The notes below the pieces were generated by a model. It was not told the origin of the DNA, made no database searches, and saw only the letters and a program-made list of their open reading frames with translations. The position numbers and the translations under genes are program-made. A DNA stretch of 64,000 nt, taken from positions 64,001 to 128,000 of IMG/VR virus record IMGVR_UViG_3300028591_000075. The stretch is one strand, 5' to 3'. Positions within the stretch are counted from its first letter, which is position 1. Every line of letters starts with the position of its first letter. Shown one piece after another: positions 12,111 through 21,591 of the stretch. This DNA comes from a virus (lineage: Duplodnaviria > Caudoviricetes).

Positions 12111-13097
12111 TTATTCATTCTCTTCCGGATTGAAGATCGGATCATTTACCGCGTCTTCGAGACCATACATCAGGTTGTCATTATTGCTCTTCACATTCAG
12201 CCCAGGCATTTCAGGCAGTTCACCATTTTCCTCGGGCTTCTCGTCATTCTCCTCGGGAACGGGATTTGCATCGGGCGACGGTTCGGTAGGAACTTCCTCA
12301 CCATGTTCAATCACGCCCGCGAGCGCATCGAGCGACTCCTGGGCTTCCGGTATCTTGATTGGGTTCAATCCTTCCATCTTCGGCAACGCATCCTTGTCGC
12401 TGATGACAGTCTTACCCTCTTCCGGTATGACCTCGGGACGTTCACCCTTCGGCGCTTCCGCCTGTTTCGGGAACATTTCAGGCGTCTCGCCCTTCTGTTC
12501 TTCCGGCTTCTTCTTTTTCGCCGAGAGTGGACCGAGGTCCACCTTCTCCTGTTCAGGCTTCGGGAACCTGGCGGTCCTGGCATCCTTCATGATTGGTCCG
12601 GCATTGGAAAGCATACCCTTGAGCGCGGCAGCGAGATGCTTGCATATCGTATGCTCGCGTTCCGGATCGCGAACGTCAGGCGGGATGTCGGAACCGGCAT
12701 CACCATGCCCTTCCTCGAAACCGTCATGCAGGTGCGACATGTTGTATGCCGCGCCGGAATAACGGAAATCCTTGCAGGGGCAGAAGCACCTGACATCGGC
12801 TTCCTTCAATGCGTTCACCCTGGACCGGAGGTCGCGGACGTTGTTGGCTACAGCGAACAGCGACATGCCCTTCGGCTTGATGGACACGTAGCACTCGTAC
12901 ACGGTACCGGGGTTCGACTGGGACGGGATGTGCCACTTGATGACTGCATCACCGGAAAGGTTCTTCTCTATCCCGACATAGTGATATTGCAGTTTCTTGG
13001 CACGCTCGACACGACCGGAATCCAGCGGAGCCGTGAATTCCTGCATCGTGCCTTCAAGGAAGGTACGCAGCCTTTTCTGCAACATCGACTTTAACAT
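12111..13097 (-). CDS. SWIM-type zinc-finger protein with acidic disordered tail
   Basis: CxCxDF...CKH motif (RCFCPCKDFRY...TICKHL). Confidence 0.75.
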   Translation of the reverse strand: MLKSMLQKRLRTFLEGTMQEFTAPLDSGRVERAKKLQYHYVGIEKNLSGDAVIKWHIPSQSNPGTVYECYVSIKPKGMSLFAVANNVRDLRSRVNALKEADVRCFCPCKDFRYSGAAYNMSHLHDGFEEGHGDAGSDIPPDVRDPEREHTICKHLAAALKGMLSNAGPIMKDARTARFPKPEQEKVDLGPLSAKKKKPEEQKGETPEMFPKQAEAPKGERPEVIPEEGKTVISDKDALPKMEGLNPIKIPEAQESLDALAGVIEHGEEVPTEPSPDANPVPEENDEKPEENGELPEMPGLNVKSNNDNLMYGLEDAVNDPIFNPEENE

Positions 13098-15079
13098 TAA
13101 CCCACCTTGAAGAGAGCTTCGGCAGTTTTCGCCTTCATAATCATGCCGGCCTTGTGACCCTCGACCATCATGGTAATCATCTGGTATCCGTTGGCCGCAT
13201 CCTCATCGGACCAGTGGTCAATTTCCTTCGGCTCGCTCTTCGGTTTCAACAGGTAGAACGGCGGATGGCCATTCTCCTTGATGTACATGGCGAGCTCACC
13301 CATTGCCTTGGTAATGCCATCGGCTTCCTTGGCTTCGAGTTCCTTCTTGGCACCGCGACCGAGAAGAGGAATCTTGCTCAGGAGCTTCTTGCCGGCAGCG
13401 GCAGCGGCATCGCCGAGACCCTTGCTTGCATTGTCGCTCTTGGCATTCACTTCGGCCATGGCCTTTGCATAACTCTTAAAGGACGCCTTGGGATCGACCA
13501 CGCTGTAGAACGCGGTAAGATGGGACATCGGAACTGGCACGGACTTGTTCAGGTCAACGAGCGTACCGCCGCTGACTCCGAGCGGGATGACGGTGACATT
13601 TTCGTTGCTGTCACCGGACTTGCCGTCGATTTCCTTGTACATGACGACGAGATTGTTTCTACGGCACGGAGTACCCTTGTTTCCGGCAATGCTCTTCAAC
13701 ACATCGACCGGGTTCTTGAGGGCATTCGAGATATCGGTAATCGCGCCTTCAACAAGCACATTGCCATCAGTGTTGACACCTTCGGTGCGAGTATCAATCC
13801 TGGCCTTCTTGTCTGTCGTGGCATCCTTCTTCCCACCGCCAAGACCGAGGGTACCCATCATGCCGATACCGAGTGCCTTTGCGACATCCGGATCAGCCTT
13901 GAGCTGCTTCTTGAATTCCTTGTATGCACGCTTCTGTGCCTTTGGTTCCTGGGCACGGAGCATTTCACGTACAAGCGTGGAGGTAAGGTTAATCATCGGG
14001 AAACCGAATGCCGTAATGAGCGCATTTTCCCATTCGCTATCGTCGATTTCCACATTGAACGCATCGGGTACTTCCACCTGCCCAACAATCTGGGAAAGCG
14101 CCTTGGAGATTTCGGTCTTCTGGGAAAGCGATGCCGTATTCTCACCCTTGTCGTTGAGCTTGCCGGCCTCTTTGAGTTCTTCATAAAGTTCCGGATTCAC
14201 GCGCTGGACGATGGTGAACACGATTTTCGAGATGCTCATCGGGTTCTTGGCCAGCTTGGCGTATATTTCGGAACCTTCGTCACCGGCCTTTTTCGCCTCG
14301 CCATCGATAAAGGCGGTAACCTTCTTCTCGATAGCCTTCTTCATCCCATCGTCAAGGCCGAGGGAATCAATCTTTTCAATGATGCTATGGTAAACTTCCT
14401 GTTTGTCGGGACTGGAACTTGCGCCCTGCTTTCCCGGAGCGGGCTTTGCGCCCTGATTTGCCTGAGCTGCGGTACCACCCAATGAAGTCAGCGGCGCATT
14501 GGAATGCCAGCCCTGTCCATTGATCTTGGCTTTCAACTCCTGTCCAATGGTTGGTTTGCCCATAAGTTCAAAAGTTGCGCCCTGTGCGGAAGCAAGTGAT
14601 TTGGAACCCTCCGTCTTCACAATCTTTCCATTGGAAACATAGATCTTCTTGTCATCACCGTAGCAATATATTGCGGTATTCTTCTCGCCAGGTTCACTGG
14701 CAACCACTTCGTTGGGTTTGCCGGAGGCAACTTTTGGATTTCTCTTTCTTGTCTGGTTTACATTGGCAGGTTGTTGGCCATTACCCGGTTCACCACCTTG
14801 GGCAGCAGGAGCAGCAGGGTCAGCCTTCGGCTTTCTAGCCCTAGGCTTCCCGGCGGGTTTCGGTGCACCCGCCTGGGCCTGCCCATCATTTTCCCCGCTT
14901 TCCATCACCGGAGCCATGATGTCATATTCCACCAGGGTATCGGCGAGCATCTTCGCTGCCGAGTTGTCACTTTCGAACATGACCTTGGAACCTTCGATAT
15001 CGGCACCAGTGTCCTCCATCGTAGAAATGAACGGGTCGAACGCGCCATTGTCCTTGATATCGTATTTTAAGAAATCCAT
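13097..15079 (-). CDS. Hypothetical protein (~660 aa), paralog of 6132-8627
   Basis: Likely start MDFLKYD at 15079, downstream of TATAAACT (15116-15109); shared C-terminal domain. Confidence 0.8.
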   Translation of the reverse strand: MDFLKYDIKDNGAFDPFISTMEDTGADIEGSKVMFESDNSAAKMLADTLVEYDIMAPVMESGENDGQAQAGAPKPAGKPRARKPKADPAAPAAQGGEPGNGQQPANVNQTRKRNPKVASGKPNEVVASEPGEKNTAIYCYGDDKKIYVSNGKIVKTEGSKSLASAQGATFELMGKPTIGQELKAKINGQGWHSNAPLTSLGGTAAQANQGAKPAPGKQGASSSPDKQEVYHSIIEKIDSLGLDDGMKKAIEKKVTAFIDGEAKKAGDEGSEIYAKLAKNPMSISKIVFTIVQRVNPELYEELKEAGKLNDKGENTASLSQKTEISKALSQIVGQVEVPDAFNVEIDDSEWENALITAFGFPMINLTSTLVREMLRAQEPKAQKRAYKEFKKQLKADPDVAKALGIGMMGTLGLGGGKKDATTDKKARIDTRTEGVNTDGNVLVEGAITDISNALKNPVDVLKSIAGNKGTPCRRNNLVVMYKEIDGKSGDSNENVTVIPLGVSGGTLVDLNKSVPVPMSHLTAFYSVVDPKASFKSYAKAMAEVNAKSDNASKGLGDAAAAAGKKLLSKIPLLGRGAKKELEAKEADGITKAMGELAMYIKENGHPPFYLLKPKSEPKEIDHWSDEDAANGYQMITMMVEGHKAGMIMKAKTAEALFKVG

Positions 15080-15129
15080 TGGAAAATCCCCGGAAAACCT
15101 TTTTCCGGAGTTTATAGGAAAACCGCGTC

Positions 15130-16686
15130 TCACGAAACCGCGTTAGCGTATTCGTCGGCTATCCTGCGGTCGGCCTCATCACCCCATCCGCAATAGTACC
15201 CGACCTCGTAGAACGATGCCATCTCGGCATCGACCATGGCGTCATCGGGTTCAAGTATCGCCCTCTCCTCGACTGTCGTAGTCGGGATGCCGAACCGGTC
15301 GAGTTCCCGGTCAAGGATGGCCTTGGCGGCATCGCCGAACTCGCGGGGAACGATGACCTCGTCATGCACAGTGCAGTAAGGGCACCCTATCTCGGCCTTG
15401 ATTGCCGGGATGACCACGTCGAACACGAAGGAACTCTCCATCCTCTGCATCTCGTATGCGAGTGCGCGGTAGTTCGACACCTTCATGCTGTCGATGAGGA
15501 TGAGCAGTTTCGGCCAATGTTCCTCCCACACCCTGCGACATGCATGCCAAGCCGGGTCGCACCCGTCATCGAGCCGGACACCGGCGAACAGCGTGGCCAG
15601 GAAGGCCTTCTTCGCCCTCTCGCGATCAACCACCTCATCCAGGTCAAAATCCTGTGACATCTCGGAAGCGAAGAACTCGTAAAGTTCGCGCCGTTCCAGC
15701 TTCCCGCGAAAATCGGCAAACTCCCGGTTCAACTGTTCCCGGCCAATCCAGTCCGGTGCGCCGGGATCCATCACGATGAACGATTCCCCGTTGCGCCCGA
15801 GCATGGCCTTGTCGCCACGGAGGCACGCGCCGATGATGTAGCACAGGAACGCGCCCTGGCTGCTCTTGATGTCAACCTCGGCAACCGGTCCGCCGTCACA
15901 TGTCAGGGCGCCCTCCCTGACCTCGCGCTTTACCTGGGTAATGTTGGTGTGTACGCGCCCGTAGTCGTCGCGCACGACATACAGAGAAGTGTCACTCTCC
16001 TCCGCATCGTTGAACCGGTCAACCTTCCTCAACTCACGGTCCAACTTGCGCCCCTCAATCCCGGCAGTCACCAGGGCGCGACGGGCCTTGGCCCGGTCGA
16101 TGTGGAAGTGTTTCAGGTTCTCGTGCGCATCGCGGACAACCGGGTCCATGAGCTGGATGCGCTTGCGGTCCTCGGCACATTTCTGCAGCCTTTTCAGGAG
16201 AATTTTCGACCGTAGTTTCACGGCCATCATGCGTCCCGCGTGGAAGTCGCCCTTGCCATAGAGGTGCGCGACATCCCTCGCGTAGCAGTATTCCTTCAAC
16301 ATCCACCCGTAGCCCTCGCCGAACCACACGGCCTTGCTCATGCCGGGTGTGCTCCCGGTAGCCTTGCAGTAGGAGGAACCGCGCATGAGGACACCCCAGT
16401 TCTTCAAGTTCTCGAACACCTCGATGTACTTGTGGCCCATCGCGGTATCCATGATTTTCGAGTAGAGGCGACAGAACCATTCGCGGCACTTCGGGGGCTT
16501 CCTGGTGGCCAGGTACTCCCTGCGGTAGGACTCGACGAGCCCCTTCGTTACCCAGTGGATGATTAGCCAGTAGTAGTCGTGGTCCCTCTCGGGGACATTG
16601 TGCTCTTTCAGCAGTGCGCGAATGGGTTTCCTGAACTTGTCCAGGACCCGTATCTCGTATTCAAACTTTGTCCGCGTTTCCGGCAT
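15130..16686 (-). CDS. Family-A polymerase-fold protein (TV-Pol/T7-like palm, no exonuclease domains) with N-terminal winged helix; candidate primase/initiator
   Basis: YGRVHTNIT, motif A EVDIKSSQ, motif B RERAKKAFLATLF, MQRMES, motif C TVHDEVIV; only 518 aa. Confidence 0.78.
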   Translation of the reverse strand: MPETRTKFEYEIRVLDKFRKPIRALLKEHNVPERDHDYYWLIIHWVTKGLVESYRREYLATRKPPKCREWFCRLYSKIMDTAMGHKYIEVFENLKNWGVLMRGSSYCKATGSTPGMSKAVWFGEGYGWMLKEYCYARDVAHLYGKGDFHAGRMMAVKLRSKILLKRLQKCAEDRKRIQLMDPVVRDAHENLKHFHIDRAKARRALVTAGIEGRKLDRELRKVDRFNDAEESDTSLYVVRDDYGRVHTNITQVKREVREGALTCDGGPVAEVDIKSSQGAFLCYIIGACLRGDKAMLGRNGESFIVMDPGAPDWIGREQLNREFADFRGKLERRELYEFFASEMSQDFDLDEVVDRERAKKAFLATLFAGVRLDDGCDPAWHACRRVWEEHWPKLLILIDSMKVSNYRALAYEMQRMESSFVFDVVIPAIKAEIGCPYCTVHDEVIVPREFGDAAKAILDRELDRFGIPTTTVEERAILEPDDAMVDAEMASFYEVGYYCGWGDEADRRIADEYANAVS

Positions 16687-16707
16687 GGCACCACAACTGA
16701 ACAGGAA

Positions 16708-16799
16708 GTGCCCCTGTGCCTCCCTCTTTTAATTTCGCTGGACGGGAGACAGCAGGGGCACCAAAATGAAAAACTCATCTTTCGGACGGGTCCAGCGAA
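16708..16799 (-). ncRNA. Structured 5' leader (H-type pseudoknot) of the PolA-like gene
   Basis: 17-bp stem 16708-16724/16744-16761 (one bulge, one G-U on the minus strand); loop 16734-16743 is perfectly complementary to 16790-16799. Confidence 0.6.
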
Positions 16800-16838
16800 G
16801 ACCGTTCCATTGCCCGCAGCTTATACATCGGCATAGAA

Positions 16839-16844
16839 AAACTA
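16839..16844 (-). promoter_or_regulatory. TAGTTT -10-type motif for the PolA-like gene
   Basis: Same motif precedes 8642, 9955, 12084(-), 22492, 40428, 52720 and 62669. Confidence 0.5.
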
Positions 16845-16918
16845 TCCCAACTACGGTTTCAACGGCAAAAAGTTACGAAACGCTTGCAACTTCAGCAAGG
16901 GGTCAGGCCCTGTACATA

Positions 16919-17237
16919 TGTAAAAAATTGTTTAAGTTTACATAATACTGGAGGCACAGCGACTCCCGGAGGGAGGGTTTTCTGTGGCTGCCGCCAAGGC
17001 TACTCCCCTTCCATAAAGATGTTTACGAAACAGCAGGGTGGCCAATATGGCCCAAAATGGGCAATTCGGGGAAGGCCGGAAGGGCCATCACGCCACCGGG
17101 CGTGTAAACTTTTCTAAACTGCTTGTACAGAGGTACCTGGACTCCCGAGGGGAGGGGAGGGGTTGAGTTTCGCCTGCGTCAAAGCAACCTACACATCCAT
17201 AAAGATGTTTACGATTTTAGGATGGGAAAATAGGCCC
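16919..17237. repeat. Two degenerate ~135-bp direct repeats (period ~185 bp), candidate origin/iterons
   Basis: Identical 19-mer TCCATAAAGATGTTTACGA at 17010 and 17196; GACTCCCG plus G-tract at 16961 and 17140. Confidence 0.8.
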
Positions 17238-17242
17238 CGTTG

Positions 17243-17271
17243 TTGACATTGTCTCCCGAATTTGCTACATT
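17243..17271 (+). promoter_or_regulatory. Sigma70-like promoter TTGACA-17-TACATT (leaderless)
   Basis: Consensus -35, 17-bp spacer, ATG 6 nt after the -10. Confidence 0.75.
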
Positions 17272-17277
17272 TTGGGC

Positions 17278-17745
17278 ATGAGCGAAGGAAATATCAGCAT
17301 AAGCGCACCCGAGAAGAAGTTCCGGGTGGGTATATTCTCGCCTACCGAGTGGCATGCCGGCATGACGAAGCCGTCCATGGTTATCGAGCTGTACCCGGTG
17401 TTCCATAGGTCATCGGTGACTTTCGTCCCGACAGTCGTCGGCGAGGAGCCTGACGTTATGGACGGATGGGAATCCGGGTACATCGCCGGCAAGGTGGTTG
17501 CCGCGGTCAAGGCCGAACTCGAAGCCGAAGGCGAACTGTCGAACGAAGCGCGTATTCACGACAAGACCTGGATCCTGTCGGCATCCGAAGGCTATGTGCG
17601 TCCCGGGGCTGACTACCGTGTACTCGTATGGTTCGTATCCGAAAGGCCGGGCGAGATTTCCGCCCTGTGGGTAGCATCCGCCGACTCGGTAAAACGTGAA
17701 ACCGCTGCGGTCGATGAACCGAAGGGGCACAGGTACAAGGTATAG
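17278..17745 (+). CDS. Hypothetical protein
   Basis: ORF starting MSEGN, co-oriented with uvsW. Confidence 0.7.
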   Translation: MSEGNISISAPEKKFRVGIFSPTEWHAGMTKPSMVIELYPVFHRSSVTFVPTVVGEEPDVMDGWESGYIAGKVVAAVKAELEAEGELSNEARIHDKTWILSASEGYVRPGADYRVLVWFVSERPGEISALWVASADSVKRETAAVDEPKGHRYKV

Positions 17746-17748
17746 CCG

Positions 17749-19638
17749 ATGGCTGAATCCGAAAAGAAATATGAATTTGTTGTCGAGTTCTCGGTGGGCG
17801 ATTCGTCGCACACCGCCGTTCGCGCATATCCGGTAAACCCGAATTCCAACGCGAAGAAGCTCGTCCACATGTTCATGCAGTCCGCCTTTACCTACTACAA
17901 CAAGGCGAAGAAGTATTCCTGGGAAGCGAAGCATCACATCCGCGGGTTCGACTGCAACGAGTATTTTTACGACAAGAATAAGGGGTGGATTCCGACGGGC
18001 ATGATCCCGAGGGCGCGTGACTACCTGAAAATGCAGTATGGCGACAGGGTGGCCATCACGATTTCTAAGGAAATCCGCAACATGTTCTCCCCGCCTTTCG
18101 GGCAGATTACGCGAGAAGACATCGAGGAGTTTACCAAGACACTCAATATCCACGACCGGGAAACCGGGAAGCCGCTGATCCCGTTCGAGCATCAGTACCG
18201 TCTGGTCGAGATTGCGCTCAACAGGCGCCGTGGCCTCCTGTTTGCATGTACCTCCGCCGGCAAGTCGGTGTCGATGATGATAATCGCCCGCTACCTGATG
18301 GAGAAGGAACACAAGAAGATCCTCATCATTGTGCCGAGCAAGGGCCTGGTCGAACAGCTTTACGACAACTTCTACACCGACTACGGGTGGGACGATGCGC
18401 GTGAATACTGTACCCTGCTGCATGGCGAGTCCTCTGACAAGATTTCCAAGAAGAAACTGGAAGAGTTGCAGAAGAAGTCAATCGGTGAAGAGAAGCTGTT
18501 GAAGCAGATTACCATCTCCACCTGGCAGACGCTCCAGCACAAGCACCCCGGTTTCTTCAAGGTGTTCGATGCCGTCCTGGTGGACGAGGCGCACGGCATG
18601 CGCGGTGTCGTCCTGCGCAGCATCCTCGAACAGTGTACCAACGCAAACAATTTCAAGGTCGGTGTCTCCGGCACGCTTCCCCTTGTCAAGCCCACCAAGG
18701 AGAACCGTGGACAGCACGGCGAAATCGGTATCAGCCTGGCACCCAGGGACGTTACCGACAGTGCCGAGTTCATCGACGCATGCAATATCGAATCGCAGCT
18801 CGGTCCGATTTATGACGTTGTACACCTTCGCGACCTTATCGCGAACGGTACGTTGACCCCGGTGCAGATGCACATGATTTACATCCCGTATCCCTACAAT
18901 ACGCGCTACGGCATATGTTATGCCAAGTACCAGATGGAACGGGCGATCGTCCTCGGGAACAGTTCCCGCAAGGACGTGATTTCCATGCTTATCGACGCCG
19001 GTCACCTTGGCACCGACCAGAATTCGGTCATTCTCTATGACGGCATCGAGCGTCTGCACGACCTGCATGATTTCTTGCAGGGGAAATATCCGCAGTACAC
19101 CTACCACATCATCGAGGGTGAAGTCAGCGCGTCCGAGCGCGAATCTATCCGAAAGCTGCTGGAAGGCAGTACCGGTAATATCCTCATCGCCACTTACGGT
19201 TGCATGAAGCAGGGCGTGAACATCAAGCAGCTCAACAACCTGGTCCTTGCCGAGCCGGCCAAGTCCATGTACAAGGTGATGCAGTCCATCGGGCGCGTGG
19301 TGCGAAAGCACCCGAACAAGCAGGTCGCCAACGTGTACGACCTCGTGGATGACGCAAATTGCTGGAAGCGTAAGCTGGACGGGACATCGGAGCAGATGTT
19401 CAACTACATGATGATACACGCCCGTTACCGCATGACGTACTATGATGCGGAGAACATCCCCATCGAGGAGCAGCACATGGACGGCATATACGAGGCGCAG
19501 CTTACCCCCGATGACATCAAGAAGCACCGCAAGGAAGCTGCCGACCGTGCCGCCGAGCGACTGCAAAAGCAGAAGCAGAAGAATGGTGGACAGATAGAGA
19601 TGGATTTGCCATACAAGAAGAAATTCTCGCTGATTTAG
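17749..19638 (+). CDS. uvsW: UvsW-like SF2 DNA helicase
   Basis: TSAGKS Walker A, DEAH, SGT, QSIGRVVR, VYDLVDD motifs; T4 UvsW layout. Confidence 0.92.
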   Translation: MAESEKKYEFVVEFSVGDSSHTAVRAYPVNPNSNAKKLVHMFMQSAFTYYNKAKKYSWEAKHHIRGFDCNEYFYDKNKGWIPTGMIPRARDYLKMQYGDRVAITISKEIRNMFSPPFGQITREDIEEFTKTLNIHDRETGKPLIPFEHQYRLVEIALNRRRGLLFACTSAGKSVSMMIIARYLMEKEHKKILIIVPSKGLVEQLYDNFYTDYGWDDAREYCTLLHGESSDKISKKKLEELQKKSIGEEKLLKQITISTWQTLQHKHPGFFKVFDAVLVDEAHGMRGVVLRSILEQCTNANNFKVGVSGTLPLVKPTKENRGQHGEIGISLAPRDVTDSAEFIDACNIESQLGPIYDVVHLRDLIANGTLTPVQMHMIYIPYPYNTRYGICYAKYQMERAIVLGNSSRKDVISMLIDAGHLGTDQNSVILYDGIERLHDLHDFLQGKYPQYTYHIIEGEVSASERESIRKLLEGSTGNILIATYGCMKQGVNIKQLNNLVLAEPAKSMYKVMQSIGRVVRKHPNKQVANVYDLVDDANCWKRKLDGTSEQMFNYMMIHARYRMTYYDAENIPIEEQHMDGIYEAQLTPDDIKKHRKEAADRAAERLQKQKQKNGGQIEMDLPYKKKFSLI

Positions 19639-19780: not shown

Positions 19781-20179
19781 ATGATGACCGATGAGAGAAA
19801 AAATGCCCTGGCGATACTGACCGCGTTCGCGTATCCGGAGATACTTGCCGAGAAACTTGGGTACATCCCCAAGTTTACGTTCAAGAATCGGATCTTGAAG
19901 AAGGCAATCCGGGAAGTGAAGAAGAACGGTGATACATCCATGGTGGTTACGACAAAACGCACCCGCGATGGCAAGGGTGACGTGATTTATCTTGCCGTGT
20001 ACGATCACCCGGTCGGAACACCGCGTTGTGCGTTTACACCAGGCGTGGTTCTCTGTATGGGGTTGAAGGAAATTCCGTTCAAGAACATAATCGAGAGTAA
20101 CGACGCGATTGCGACTGCGAATGCGATTTACCATTATCACCAGGCGTTCAAACAGTATGATTGCAGTGCGGGGACATGA
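19781..20179 (+). CDS. Hypothetical protein
   Basis: 132-aa ORF after TTGCTATATT; stop overlaps the next start. Confidence 0.75.
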   Translation: MMTDERKNALAILTAFAYPEILAEKLGYIPKFTFKNRILKKAIREVKKNGDTSMVVTTKRTRDGKGDVIYLAVYDHPVGTPRCAFTPGVVLCMGLKEIPFKNIIESNDAIATANAIYHYHQAFKQYDCSAGT

Positions 20180-21591
20180 TGGCCGGCAAGAAAAAGAAAG
20201 AACCGACATTTGAACTCCCGCCCCTGAAATCATACCGGTCGGTAAACAACCGGTATCTGGTACTGGACTGGGCATCCATGTCCTACCACAAGATGTTCTC
20301 CATCAACACGGCAAAGAACCGAGAGAAGTACGGGTTCATGGGTGCCGAAGGCGAAATCAAGCTGTGGCGCACGTTCATGGTCGATGAACTGATGAAGCTC
20401 ATCGCCCTGTTCGATCCGATGCACATCATCATCGCCCTCGAAGGTCCGGGTTCATGGCGCAAGAAGTTCGTCAAGGACTACTACGCCGAGCACGCCACAA
20501 TCTATTACGTCAACGATCCCGACAACAAGGCCTACTTTGTCCGCGCCGACAACCTCGGGTACGAGGTGAGGAAGGCCCAGGACGGGAACTTCTGCGTTAC
20601 CCCCATTCCAATTGCCGACTTCCCGAAACTCAACGAATTGAAGCACAAGCAGTTGGGTGAGTTCAATGAAGACAGGCAGAAGATGTTCTGGGACATCTAT
20701 GCACCCAACGGGAAGGACCCCATCCTCCCGTCGTACAAGGGAACCCGTAACAGCAATGACTGGCCGTTCACCATCGACCGCAAGATTTGGCGAAAGTACA
20801 AGGAGCAGTTCGCACAGGAACTCGCGCCCATCTTCCGCGCCCGCGCAATCTCGTGCGAAGGTGCCGAAGGTGACGATGTGGTTTATGCGTCCGCGAAGAT
20901 GTTCTGCGGGAAGGCCGATGACGTAATCGTCGTGACCCACGACTCTGACTTGCTGCAGTTGAACTTCCCGAAGGTGAAGGTCTTCGACCACATCAGTTGC
21001 AACTTCATGACTGTGGACGATCCGGTCAAATACCTCGACATCAAGGTGCTCGCGGGTGATAGTTCCGATAACATCCACGGCATGTCGTTCATCAAGCCGA
21101 AGACGGGTAAACTGGATTTTACAGTAAAGAACAGGTTCGGCGAGGGAACCGCCGCGAAGTTCATCCAGGCGTTCCCGAACGTGTATGACGTGGCGAAGAA
21201 CAACGGGTGGGATGACCAGTACATGCGCAACCGCAAGCTGATTGACCTTTCCTGCACACCGCCGGAAGTCGTTACCCGCCTGAACGACATGCTTACAAAG
21301 CCGGAACCGGAACTTTGCGGCTTCGAACTCCTGGATTTCTGGGATGTCGAACCGTACTACAAGGACCTTATGCAGAGCATGCGCTCCTATGGCTACCGCT
21401 CCATGATACCGGTATCCATGGCCGAGAAGAAGGCGCCAGTCGCCCTGCCGGCGGTCCCGGTTTCGGGTTTCGATGACAAGAAGTTCATGCCGATACCGCC
21501 GGGCGGTCCACAGACTGTGGCCAAGCCCGCCATGCAGGGATTTACATTTGCTGACACCGCCGGAATCGACGATGTCGGGAACCTTTTATAA
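20176..21591 (+). CDS. rnh: T4 RNase H-like 5'-3' exonuclease/flap endonuclease
   Basis: VLDW, YKGTR, EGDD, THDSDLLQL, LAGDSSDNIHG motifs. Confidence 0.9.
   Translation: MMAGKKKKEPTFELPPLKSYRSVNNRYLVLDWASMSYHKMFSINTAKNREKYGFMGAEGEIKLWRTFMVDELMKLIALFDPMHIIIALEGPGSWRKKFVKDYYAEHATIYYVNDPDNKAYFVRADNLGYEVRKAQDGNFCVTPIPIADFPKLNELKHKQLGEFNEDRQKMFWDIYAPNGKDPILPSYKGTRNSNDWPFTIDRKIWRKYKEQFAQELAPIFRARAISCEGAEGDDVVYASAKMFCGKADDVIVVTHDSDLLQLNFPKVKVFDHISCNFMTVDDPVKYLDIKVLAGDSSDNIHGMSFIKPKTGKLDFTVKNRFGEGTAAKFIQAFPNVYDVAKNNGWDDQYMRNRKLIDLSCTPPEVVTRLNDMLTKPEPELCGFELLDFWDVEPYYKDLMQSMRSYGYRSMIPVSMAEKKAPVALPAVPVSGFDDKKFMPIPPGGPQTVAKPAMQGFTFADTAGIDDVGNLL

Follow-up and report, generated by a model that had tools for sequence, protein, structure and literature searches.

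An exonuclease-free family-A polymerase gene beside paired sequence boxes at the probable replication origin of T4-like jumbo phages

A gene for a minimal, TV-Pol-like family-A polymerase of 518 amino acids lies beside two copies of an 18-bp sequence box in a 64,000-nucleotide stretch of phage DNA (the window), which represents bases 64001-128000 of the 253-kb IMG/VR virus record IMGVR_UViG_3300028591_000075 (estimated completeness 67%). The gene (15130..16686, minus strand) sits at a divergent junction which, by its coincidence with the switch in compositional skew, probably marks the single bidirectional replication origin of a group of 250-420-kb T4-like jumbo phages. We tentatively favour, at somewhat short of an even chance, the explanation that this enzyme, which joins an exonuclease-free polymerase to a winged-helix-like domain, plays an origin-linked role in initiation there. 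The record is called G000 below, five related genomes are G001-G005, and phage loci fetched for comparison carry L-numbers. Related contigs reach 422 kb (G001, complete), and the RNA and DNA runs that bear the locus derive from gut samples of cattle and sheep. The metatranscriptomes consist of assembled contigs, some of them 9.9 kb long, which may be DNA carry-over and carry no strand, ends or expression levels.

The polymerase is recognized by its open reading frame (ORF), its homologs and its fold. It has 39 close homologs, and 956 representative clusters are matched at E<=1e-3. The motifs G243-R-V-H-T247, D272-I-K-S-S-Q277, R355xxxK359 and T439-V-H-D442 are invariant or nearly so across 25 homologs, and in 49 sequences, extending to ~20% identity, the residues R244, D272, Q277, K359, Q414, E417, T439, H441 and D442 are invariant. 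The residues that define the family-A superfamily, namely the motif A aspartate D272, R355 and K359 of motif B, and H441 and D442 of motif C, are all conserved, and the active site is, judged from sequence, catalytically intact.

An AlphaFold2 model built on 25 homologs (predicted local distance difference test score, pLDDT, 79.8) agrees with this assignment. Almost all of the top 50 Foldseek matches are family-A polymerases (best E 6.6e-4), and an exhaustive VIA comparison aligned 249 residues, within positions 180-476 of the protein, to Aquifex Pol I, the apicoplast polymerase and Klenow (Z 12.2, root-mean-square deviation 3.8). The polymerase core, delimited by VIA and by the invariant columns, spans residues ~171-476 (15259..16176, minus strand) and comprises thumb, palm and fingers; it holds R244, D272 and Q277 of motif A, R355, K359 and F367 of motif B, Q414, and H441 and D442 of motif C. 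Ahead of it, residues 1-150 (16237..16686, minus strand) form a tentative winged-helix-like domain, with model helices at 76-83 and 86-96 and strands at 100-102 and 119-122; residues ~14-150 match winged-helix domains only (Fur, ORC, Cdc6, MarR, a plasmid initiator), at modest VIA scores (Z 5.2-6.1). No exonuclease domain was found in the 518-residue protein, and its N-terminal region had no nuclease match in VIA. A preliminary description of the window, made from the letters alone, had drawn much the same picture: the ORF with its family-A motifs and without an exonuclease is borne out by the alignments and the fold search, the PolA/T7-type fold it proposed is recovered by both structural methods, and the N-terminal winged helix stands tentatively at the modest scores just given.

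Sequence searches against known families returned little. Pfam (E<=0.1), PHROG and NCBIfam gave zero matches for the polymerase, PF00476 (DNA_pol_A) matched nowhere in the genome and did match in control genomes, and neither the protein nor profile A1 found anything relevant in the PDB by sequence.

The position of the gene is tied to the composition of the genome. Over the record as a whole, the gene strand switches at the polymerase locus. Of the five related genomes G000-G004, four have their global cumulative GC-skew minimum within 0-3.5 kb of the locus. The minimum of G004 (83,551) is 177 bp from the polymerase start codon (83,728), with the proximal box near 83,536; that of G003 (86,837) is about 0.1 kb from the 3' end of the gene (86,939-88,573); that of G002 (154,213) falls inside the 5' end of the gene (153,937-155,553); and that of the complete, 422-kb G001 (211,043) lies in a flat stretch about 1.8-3.4 kb from the gene (207,748-209,292). 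When gene orientation is controlled in G000, the best GC-skew breakpoint is at 81 kb, which is the locus, with positions from 81 to 107 kb nearly tied. Plus-strand GC skew at third codon positions rises by ~0.07-0.15 from left to right in 5/5 genomes, whichever way the genes point. Since the shift is present in genes of both orientations, it indicates a replication-linked rather than a transcription-linked bias. The cumulative-skew check that the preliminary description had named for its origin proposal therefore came out in favour of the locus in related genomes, in both the minimum and the orientation-independent shift.

This setting resembles the origins of T4, which lie at points of transcription divergence and composition switch (PMC3016281). 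T4 oriF and oriG share with the present locus the divergence, the composition switch, a promoter-like element and an AT-rich unwinding element, and UvsW and RNase H, a flap endonuclease (FEN), belong to the T4 system as well (PMC3016281). Unlike this locus, T4 origins obtain their R-loop primer from host RNA polymerase and MotA, without an origin-encoded family-A polymerase, and T4 has several of them, whereas the skew here indicates one dominant switch.

The cumulative skew of G000 is flat from 81 to 106 kb (window 17000-42000) and then rises, and the related genomes show sharp V-shaped minima. An insertion, a rearrangement or a second zone of initiation could account for the flat 25 kb.

Upstream of the polymerase gene, and transcribed away from by it, is an ORF-free gap of 585 bp (16687-17271), the longest in the window, as the preliminary description had noted (~590 bp), and the second longest in the 253-kb record. 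Two direct repeat units occupy 16951-17028 and 17130-17214. An exact 18-mer, CCATAAAGATGTTTACGA, forms box 1 (17011..17028, plus strand), which is kept exactly in L006-L008 amid diverged DNA; box 2 (17197..17214, plus strand), supported by the repeats and the footprint, is identical to it and lies 186 bp downstream. The chance expectation for such an 18-mer pair is 0.05 matches, and no further copy of CCATAAAGATGTTTACGA occurs elsewhere in the 253-kb record. A degenerate third half-box, AAAAAGTTACGAAAC, resembling the 3' half of the box, is conserved in L006-L008 (16867..16881, plus strand). We also considered the boxes as a general promoter class, and rejected this, as even a scan at relaxed stringency found only two copies in the 253 kb.

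Relatives whose protein is 71-97% identical keep the boxes exactly, although the flanks have diverged. Among the fetched phage loci, lineages with as little as 24% protein identity still have the core ATATGTT(T/C), which lies 86-330 nt upstream of the gene, once or as two direct copies. Paired boxes are identical over 16-25 nt inside one genome and different among lineages (one example from another lineage is ACCAAATATATGTTTCATG), a combination expected for sites read by a co-evolving factor. Where the helicase operon that normally lies across the junction has moved off (L008, L038-42), the boxes remain with the polymerase gene, and in one lineage the two boxes are separated by a gene. In another lineage the polymerase gene and the helicase lie 19 kb apart, and no box is present upstream of the helicase; there, the polymerase gene is again at a divergent junction, by a box-like sequence in flipped orientation. 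This last lineage is represented by G005 (IMGVR_UViG_3300028887_003391; L173:4394-9494), in which the polymerase gene is divergent from a lineage-specific 1084-aa gene without a homolog in G000-G002. The expectation that the upstream regions of homologs would keep the repeats and a pseudoknot was upheld for the adjacent boxes; for the pseudoknot, described below, no covariation was found.

The boxes can also be read as phage promoters. T7 RNA polymerase makes the primer transcript at the T7 primary origin, and the present protein could be a minimal RNA polymerase of the T7 or N4 RNA polymerase II (RNAPII) kind, with the boxes as its only promoters: two tandem promoters would drive transcription into the AT-rich tract, yielding a primer RNA or an R-loop, or the enzyme would transcribe its own operon. 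The boxes, at 18-25 bp, are specific, tandem and lineage-specific, and the AT-rich tract follows them toward the polymerase gene. The VIA scores for mitochondrial RNA polymerase (Z 11.4) and T7 RNA polymerase (9.3) come close to the 12.2 of the DNA polymerases, with N4 RNAPII at 8.1; most family members carry HDS at motif C, as do T7-like RNA polymerases; and profile A3 finds its best PDB match in N4 RNAPII at motifs B and C, at a non-significant E of 0.085. The nucleotide-binding residues argue the other way. T7-like RNA polymerases have a Gly at motif A D+5 and use a motif-B Tyr to select ribonucleotides, whereas the present family has an invariant, bulky Gln (Q277) at D+5, the steric gate, and a Phe (F367) in place of Tyr at motif-B position K+8. 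The Gln and the Phe are also departures from Pol I and CCPol. Since Q277 is bulky at the steric gate and F367 is not Tyr, we infer that the enzyme uses deoxynucleoside triphosphates (dNTPs). PF00940 had no match, in a search without a working control; the orientation of the boxes is flipped in one lineage; and the contigs from RNA libraries supply no directional information. Taken together, these points make an RNA polymerase improbable.

The explanation that we favour, an origin-linked initiation role, can be set out in three steps. The enzyme would first be recruited to the boxes, through its own winged helix, which would then bind them, or through a partner. It would next supply the first 3'-OH at the origin, either by starting DNA synthesis de novo, in the way of CCPol-MP at the SCCmec origin, or, equally compatible with the data, by extending the RNA of an R-loop. 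Pol I extends R-loop RNA in this way at ColE1, and the neighbouring FEN, the UvsW-like helicase and the T4 origin model fit extension. Whether by primer synthesis or by primer extension, a role of this kind is one that we infer. A replisome of PolB and the gp41-like and gp61-like proteins would finally take over. The phage does encode T4-like replication genes for PolB, a DnaB/gp41-like helicase, a gp32-like protein and a gp61-like primase; a 386-aa phage protein matches T4 gp61 primase (PDB 8dvf_H, E 4.6e-18). The window itself contains a UvsW-like superfamily 2 (SF2) helicase, a flap endonuclease / 5'-3' exonuclease and an SbcC-like protein. In its strictest form, a single polypeptide would do all the work, its winged helix reading the lineage-specific boxes and its family-A palm making the first primer, so that it fires the one origin. 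We hold this version to be unlikely. With its PolA fold, such a polypeptide would correspond to ColE2 Rep, or to T7 RNA polymerase at the T7 origin, and it might even be made late and carried over into the next cell; the comparison with ColE2 Rep, which the preliminary description had drawn, is an analogy only.

Several observations weigh against an initiation role. The phage already has its own gp61-like primase, gp41-like helicase, gp32 and PolB, which renders priming by this enzyme unneeded for general replication; with the primase, helicase and gp32 present, we rejected the enzyme as a general primase. T4 starts its origins through RNA-polymerase R-loops, needing no such enzyme (PMC3016281). 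No OB-fold (oligonucleotide/oligosaccharide-binding fold) single-stranded-DNA-binding (SSB) partner like the MP of CCPol-MP was found. The skew minimum coincides with the strand switch of the genome, the five genomes are syntenic relatives rather than independent observations, and the cumulative-skew minimum of G000 is a 25-kb plateau that starts at the locus and has its global minimum at 105.9 kb. In several lineages the boxes stand 64-97 nt upstream of rightward genes, and could be promoter or operator elements. Finally, the polymerase gene appears to be driven by TATAAGCT, of the motif class that stands before a baseplate wedge gene, which suggests late rather than early expression.

The promoter class can be described from its distribution. 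TATAAGCT, the likely promoter of the polymerase gene (16818..16825, minus strand), is invariant in the window, L006, L007 and L008, and four of its five copies lie within 200 nt upstream of same-strand genes. It is a variant of TATAAACT, whose 39 copies in 253 kb compare with an expectation of roughly 8 for a random 8-mer when both strands are counted; of the 39, 23 are no more than 200 nt upstream of the start of a gene on the same strand, usually at 11-58 nt. In this phage, TATAAACT probably corresponds to the late promoter of T4. It stands before a baseplate wedge gene, before the gp32-like gene and before many large genes that lack annotation, and is absent before PolB, the helicases, the primase, FEN and SbcC.

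Late-like expression is also what could be seen in an accessory DNA polymerase for repair, recombination or gap filling, either a Pol I polymerase domain without its nucleases or a Pol-theta-like partner of a helicase. Such an enzyme would act with the flap endonuclease, the UvsW-like helicase and the SbcC-like nuclease to mature Okazaki fragments, to rescue forks or in recombination-dependent replication; the boxes would be ordinary regulatory sites of divergent promoters, and the nearby origin would fire by a T4-like R-loop without the enzyme. The genes for FEN, the UvsW-like helicase and the SbcC-like protein adjoin the polymerase gene, the phage has a complete T4-like replisome that includes a primase of its own, and R244, Q414 and H441 lie in motifs that, from inspection, we take to resemble those of Klenow R668, Q849 and H881. 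Repair is also named as one option by the authors who described divPolA2, a group of divergent phage PolA proteins (PMC11348598). A repair role leaves unexplained the unique, concertedly evolving box that stays with the gene through rearrangements, the winged-helix domain on the polymerase, and the location of the gene 0-3.5 kb from the skew minimum in four genomes. We consider it a rather unlikely account.

The protein can be placed among known polymerases through its distant relatives. A tblastn search of 50,697 phage records found matches only in uncultured 595-735-kb phages, at 23-25% identity. More distant homologs of ~400 aa (E about 1e-10) occur in Planctomycetes, and one distant homolog belongs to a bacterial element in which it adjoins a large serine recombinase and UmuDC-like genes. 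A mobile-element setting with a serine recombinase is where TV-Pols were defined (PMC2579912). Several intermediate sequences match both the 518-aa protein and phrog_4756 (E 4e-8 to 2.5e-3), which we show here to be the divPolA2 protein AUR84708 of Vibrio phage 1.063.O; divPolA2 is described in PMC11348598. The 518-aa protein itself has no PHROG match, hence none to phrog_4756, and an hhalign comparison of profile A1 with AUR84708 is weak (E 0.05). Profile A3 found nothing in either Microcystis phage LMM01 or Vibrio phage 1.063.O, and such empty answers prove little. Because its distant homologs occur in TV-Pol settings and intermediates connect it with phrog_4756, we assign the protein, in a broad sense, to the TV-Pol/divPolA2 superfamily. 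Within it, the protein appears to form a separate clade, for which no description was found in the literature searched.

The likeness to TV-Pols, which rests on their described architecture and on distant homologs, comprises a thumb, an Arg-bearing beta-hairpin, a two-Asp palm and RxxxK fingers without nuclease domains (PMC2579912). Both kinds of protein occur in viruses or mobile elements that keep another replicase, with a predicted role in initiation, and the distant homologs by a large serine recombinase and in Planctomycetes extend the parallel. The minimal TV-Pol-like architecture suggested by the preliminary description is in keeping with these homologs in mobile elements. However, the helicase neighbour here is SF2/UvsW-like, where that of TV-Pols is D5-like; the N-terminus here is winged-helix-like; and the hosts of the gene are 250-420-kb T4-like phages with a full replisome. 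No recombinase was found in the polymerase locus, and the linkage that characterizes TV-Pols, with a D5-like helicase or else with a resolvase, integrase or transposase, is absent.

CCPol-MP, the nearest precedent known from experiment, is an A-family primase that primes with dNTPs, its preferred start being an iteron origin beside its own operon (PMC7581432; on Pol-SSB pairs see 10.1101/2022.12.02.518924). With the CCPol-MP and Cch2 helicase system of SCCmec, the present locus shares an A-family polymerase without proofreading, encoded together with a small protein and a helicase, and the adjoining direct repeats, which for CCPol are the putative origin and preferred priming site. The differences are in the details: CCPol keeps a steric-gate Glu and F762 (PMC7581432), in contrast to the invariant Gln Q277 here; MP is an OB-fold SSB, whereas the 157-aa neighbour here has no recognisable fold; the helicase is SF2 and not of the D5 type; the DNA-binding module is fused to the polymerase; and two boxes about 90-190 bp apart take the place of clustered 5-nt iterons.

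The divPolA2/phrog_4756 proteins (PMC11348598) are likewise divergent phage PolA enzymes with an active palm, a novel N-terminal domain and no exonuclease; they coexist with PolB, and their fold, like that of the present protein, matches DNA polymerases and RNA polymerases alike (Z about 9-12). They differ in having Glu at the steric-gate position in the hhalign alignment, where Gln is found here, and in their variable gene neighbourhoods, whereas the present clade has a fixed, origin-linked position with boxes.

Other features of the gap were examined beside the boxes. An AT-rich tract (16907..16956; 75% AT in a gap of 50% GC), partly conserved in relatives, is a candidate DNA-unwinding element. 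The mRNA leader of the polymerase gene, ~130 nt long, contains a long hairpin (16708..16762, minus strand) with a minimum free energy of -64.5 kcal/mol (z = -3.71) and some compensatory pairs. Its loop, 16734-16743, is perfectly complementary over 10 nt to 16790-16799, making a pseudoknot possible. No covariation was found for this pseudoknot: in L008 the two segments pair out of register, and a shifted 7-bp helix is no better than expected by chance. Of the repeats and pseudoknot in the preliminary description, the two direct repeats consequently stand, with their exact 18-mer, and the pseudoknot is reduced to its 10-nt complementarity. The small GACTCCC...GGGAG hairpins, considered as N4-type promoters, were rejected, being kept in neither L007 nor L008. 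A consensus scan picks out a sigma-70-like promoter candidate, TTGACA-17-TACATT, on the plus strand just 5' of the start codon of the 157-aa gene (17243..17271), and an RNA-library contig starting at 17291 is a weak hint for it.

An RNA gene between the boxes was likewise rejected, since the sequence there is unconserved and holds no conserved ORF. The same sequence bears on the idea, raised in the preliminary description, that the polymerase copies a template encoded by the repeats, in a retron-like or otherwise template-directed manner; with it we group the possibility of a degenerate, inactive domain. The region between the boxes is indeed non-coding, but it is poorly conserved, with indels, and an Rfam search of 16400-17500 matched no family, so that nothing in support of a template was obtained. 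Against a dead enzyme stand the catalytic residues, invariant in 49 sequences of a family of ~950 representative clusters. We regard both proposals as very improbable.

Across the junction, a small conserved protein of 155-157 aa is encoded by the first gene of the helicase operon (17278..17745, plus strand; positional homologs in 13 loci). Its model (pLDDT 80.8) is alpha/beta and has no PDB structural match (best Z 3.6; Foldseek E >= 0.15); the idea that it is an MP-like OB-fold SSB was dropped as unsupported, given the lack of a structural match. Throughout L004-L020, a fast-evolving 150-190-aa protein, with a Y-R/K-x-V-hydrophobic strand motif in common, always precedes the UvsW-like helicase and is a candidate partner for it. 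The UvsW-like SF2 DNA helicase (17749..19638, plus strand; Pfam ResIII, DEAD and Helicase_C; phrog_16, 2e-59) is the conserved divergent neighbour, the polymerase gene being divergent from it in 25 of the 28 helicase-anchored loci that had helicase identity >=40% and enough upstream DNA. A rumen metatranscriptome contig of 2294 nt (17291-19583) spans the 157-aa gene and the helicase nearly end to end, and fits a bicistronic mRNA with a very short leader, although contigs cannot prove transcript ends. In L133 (788-2380, plus strand), a weak match to the polymerase profile (E 3e-8) lies near a distant UvsW-like helicase (27% identity).

Further downstream, 20161..21591 (plus strand) encodes a flap endonuclease / 5'-3' exonuclease like the Pol I N-terminal domain and T4 RNase H (phrog_107; NCBIfam Pol I N-terminal and Xni), with an extra ~160 aa ahead of its FEN domain, as the matches cover residues 165-316 only. 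On the other side, the polymerase stop codon overlaps, in ATGA, the start of a gene for a 678-aa low-complexity protein (13097-15133, minus strand), which is followed by one for a 328-aa protein (12111-13097, minus strand). This order is kept only in the closest relatives, L006-L009; elsewhere the homologs are on the opposite strand.

To our knowledge, origin choice and firing in large T4-like and jumbo phages are poorly understood outside T4, and we know of one biochemically studied member of the TV-Pol/divPolA2 class, CCPol-MP. The locus offers a defined, testable system that consists of an enzyme of ~520 aa, an 18-bp box present exactly twice, an AT-rich tract, and a position at the compositional origin in several genomes. 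Should the enzyme bind the boxes and prime or extend at them, it would represent a sequence-specific initiator of replication of a new type, a function would be at hand for the 'orphan PolA' genes that are widespread in phages, and DNA synthesis would gain a compact, sequence-addressed enzyme. Should it not, the probable replication origin of an uncultured family of rumen jumbo phages is still mapped by these data.

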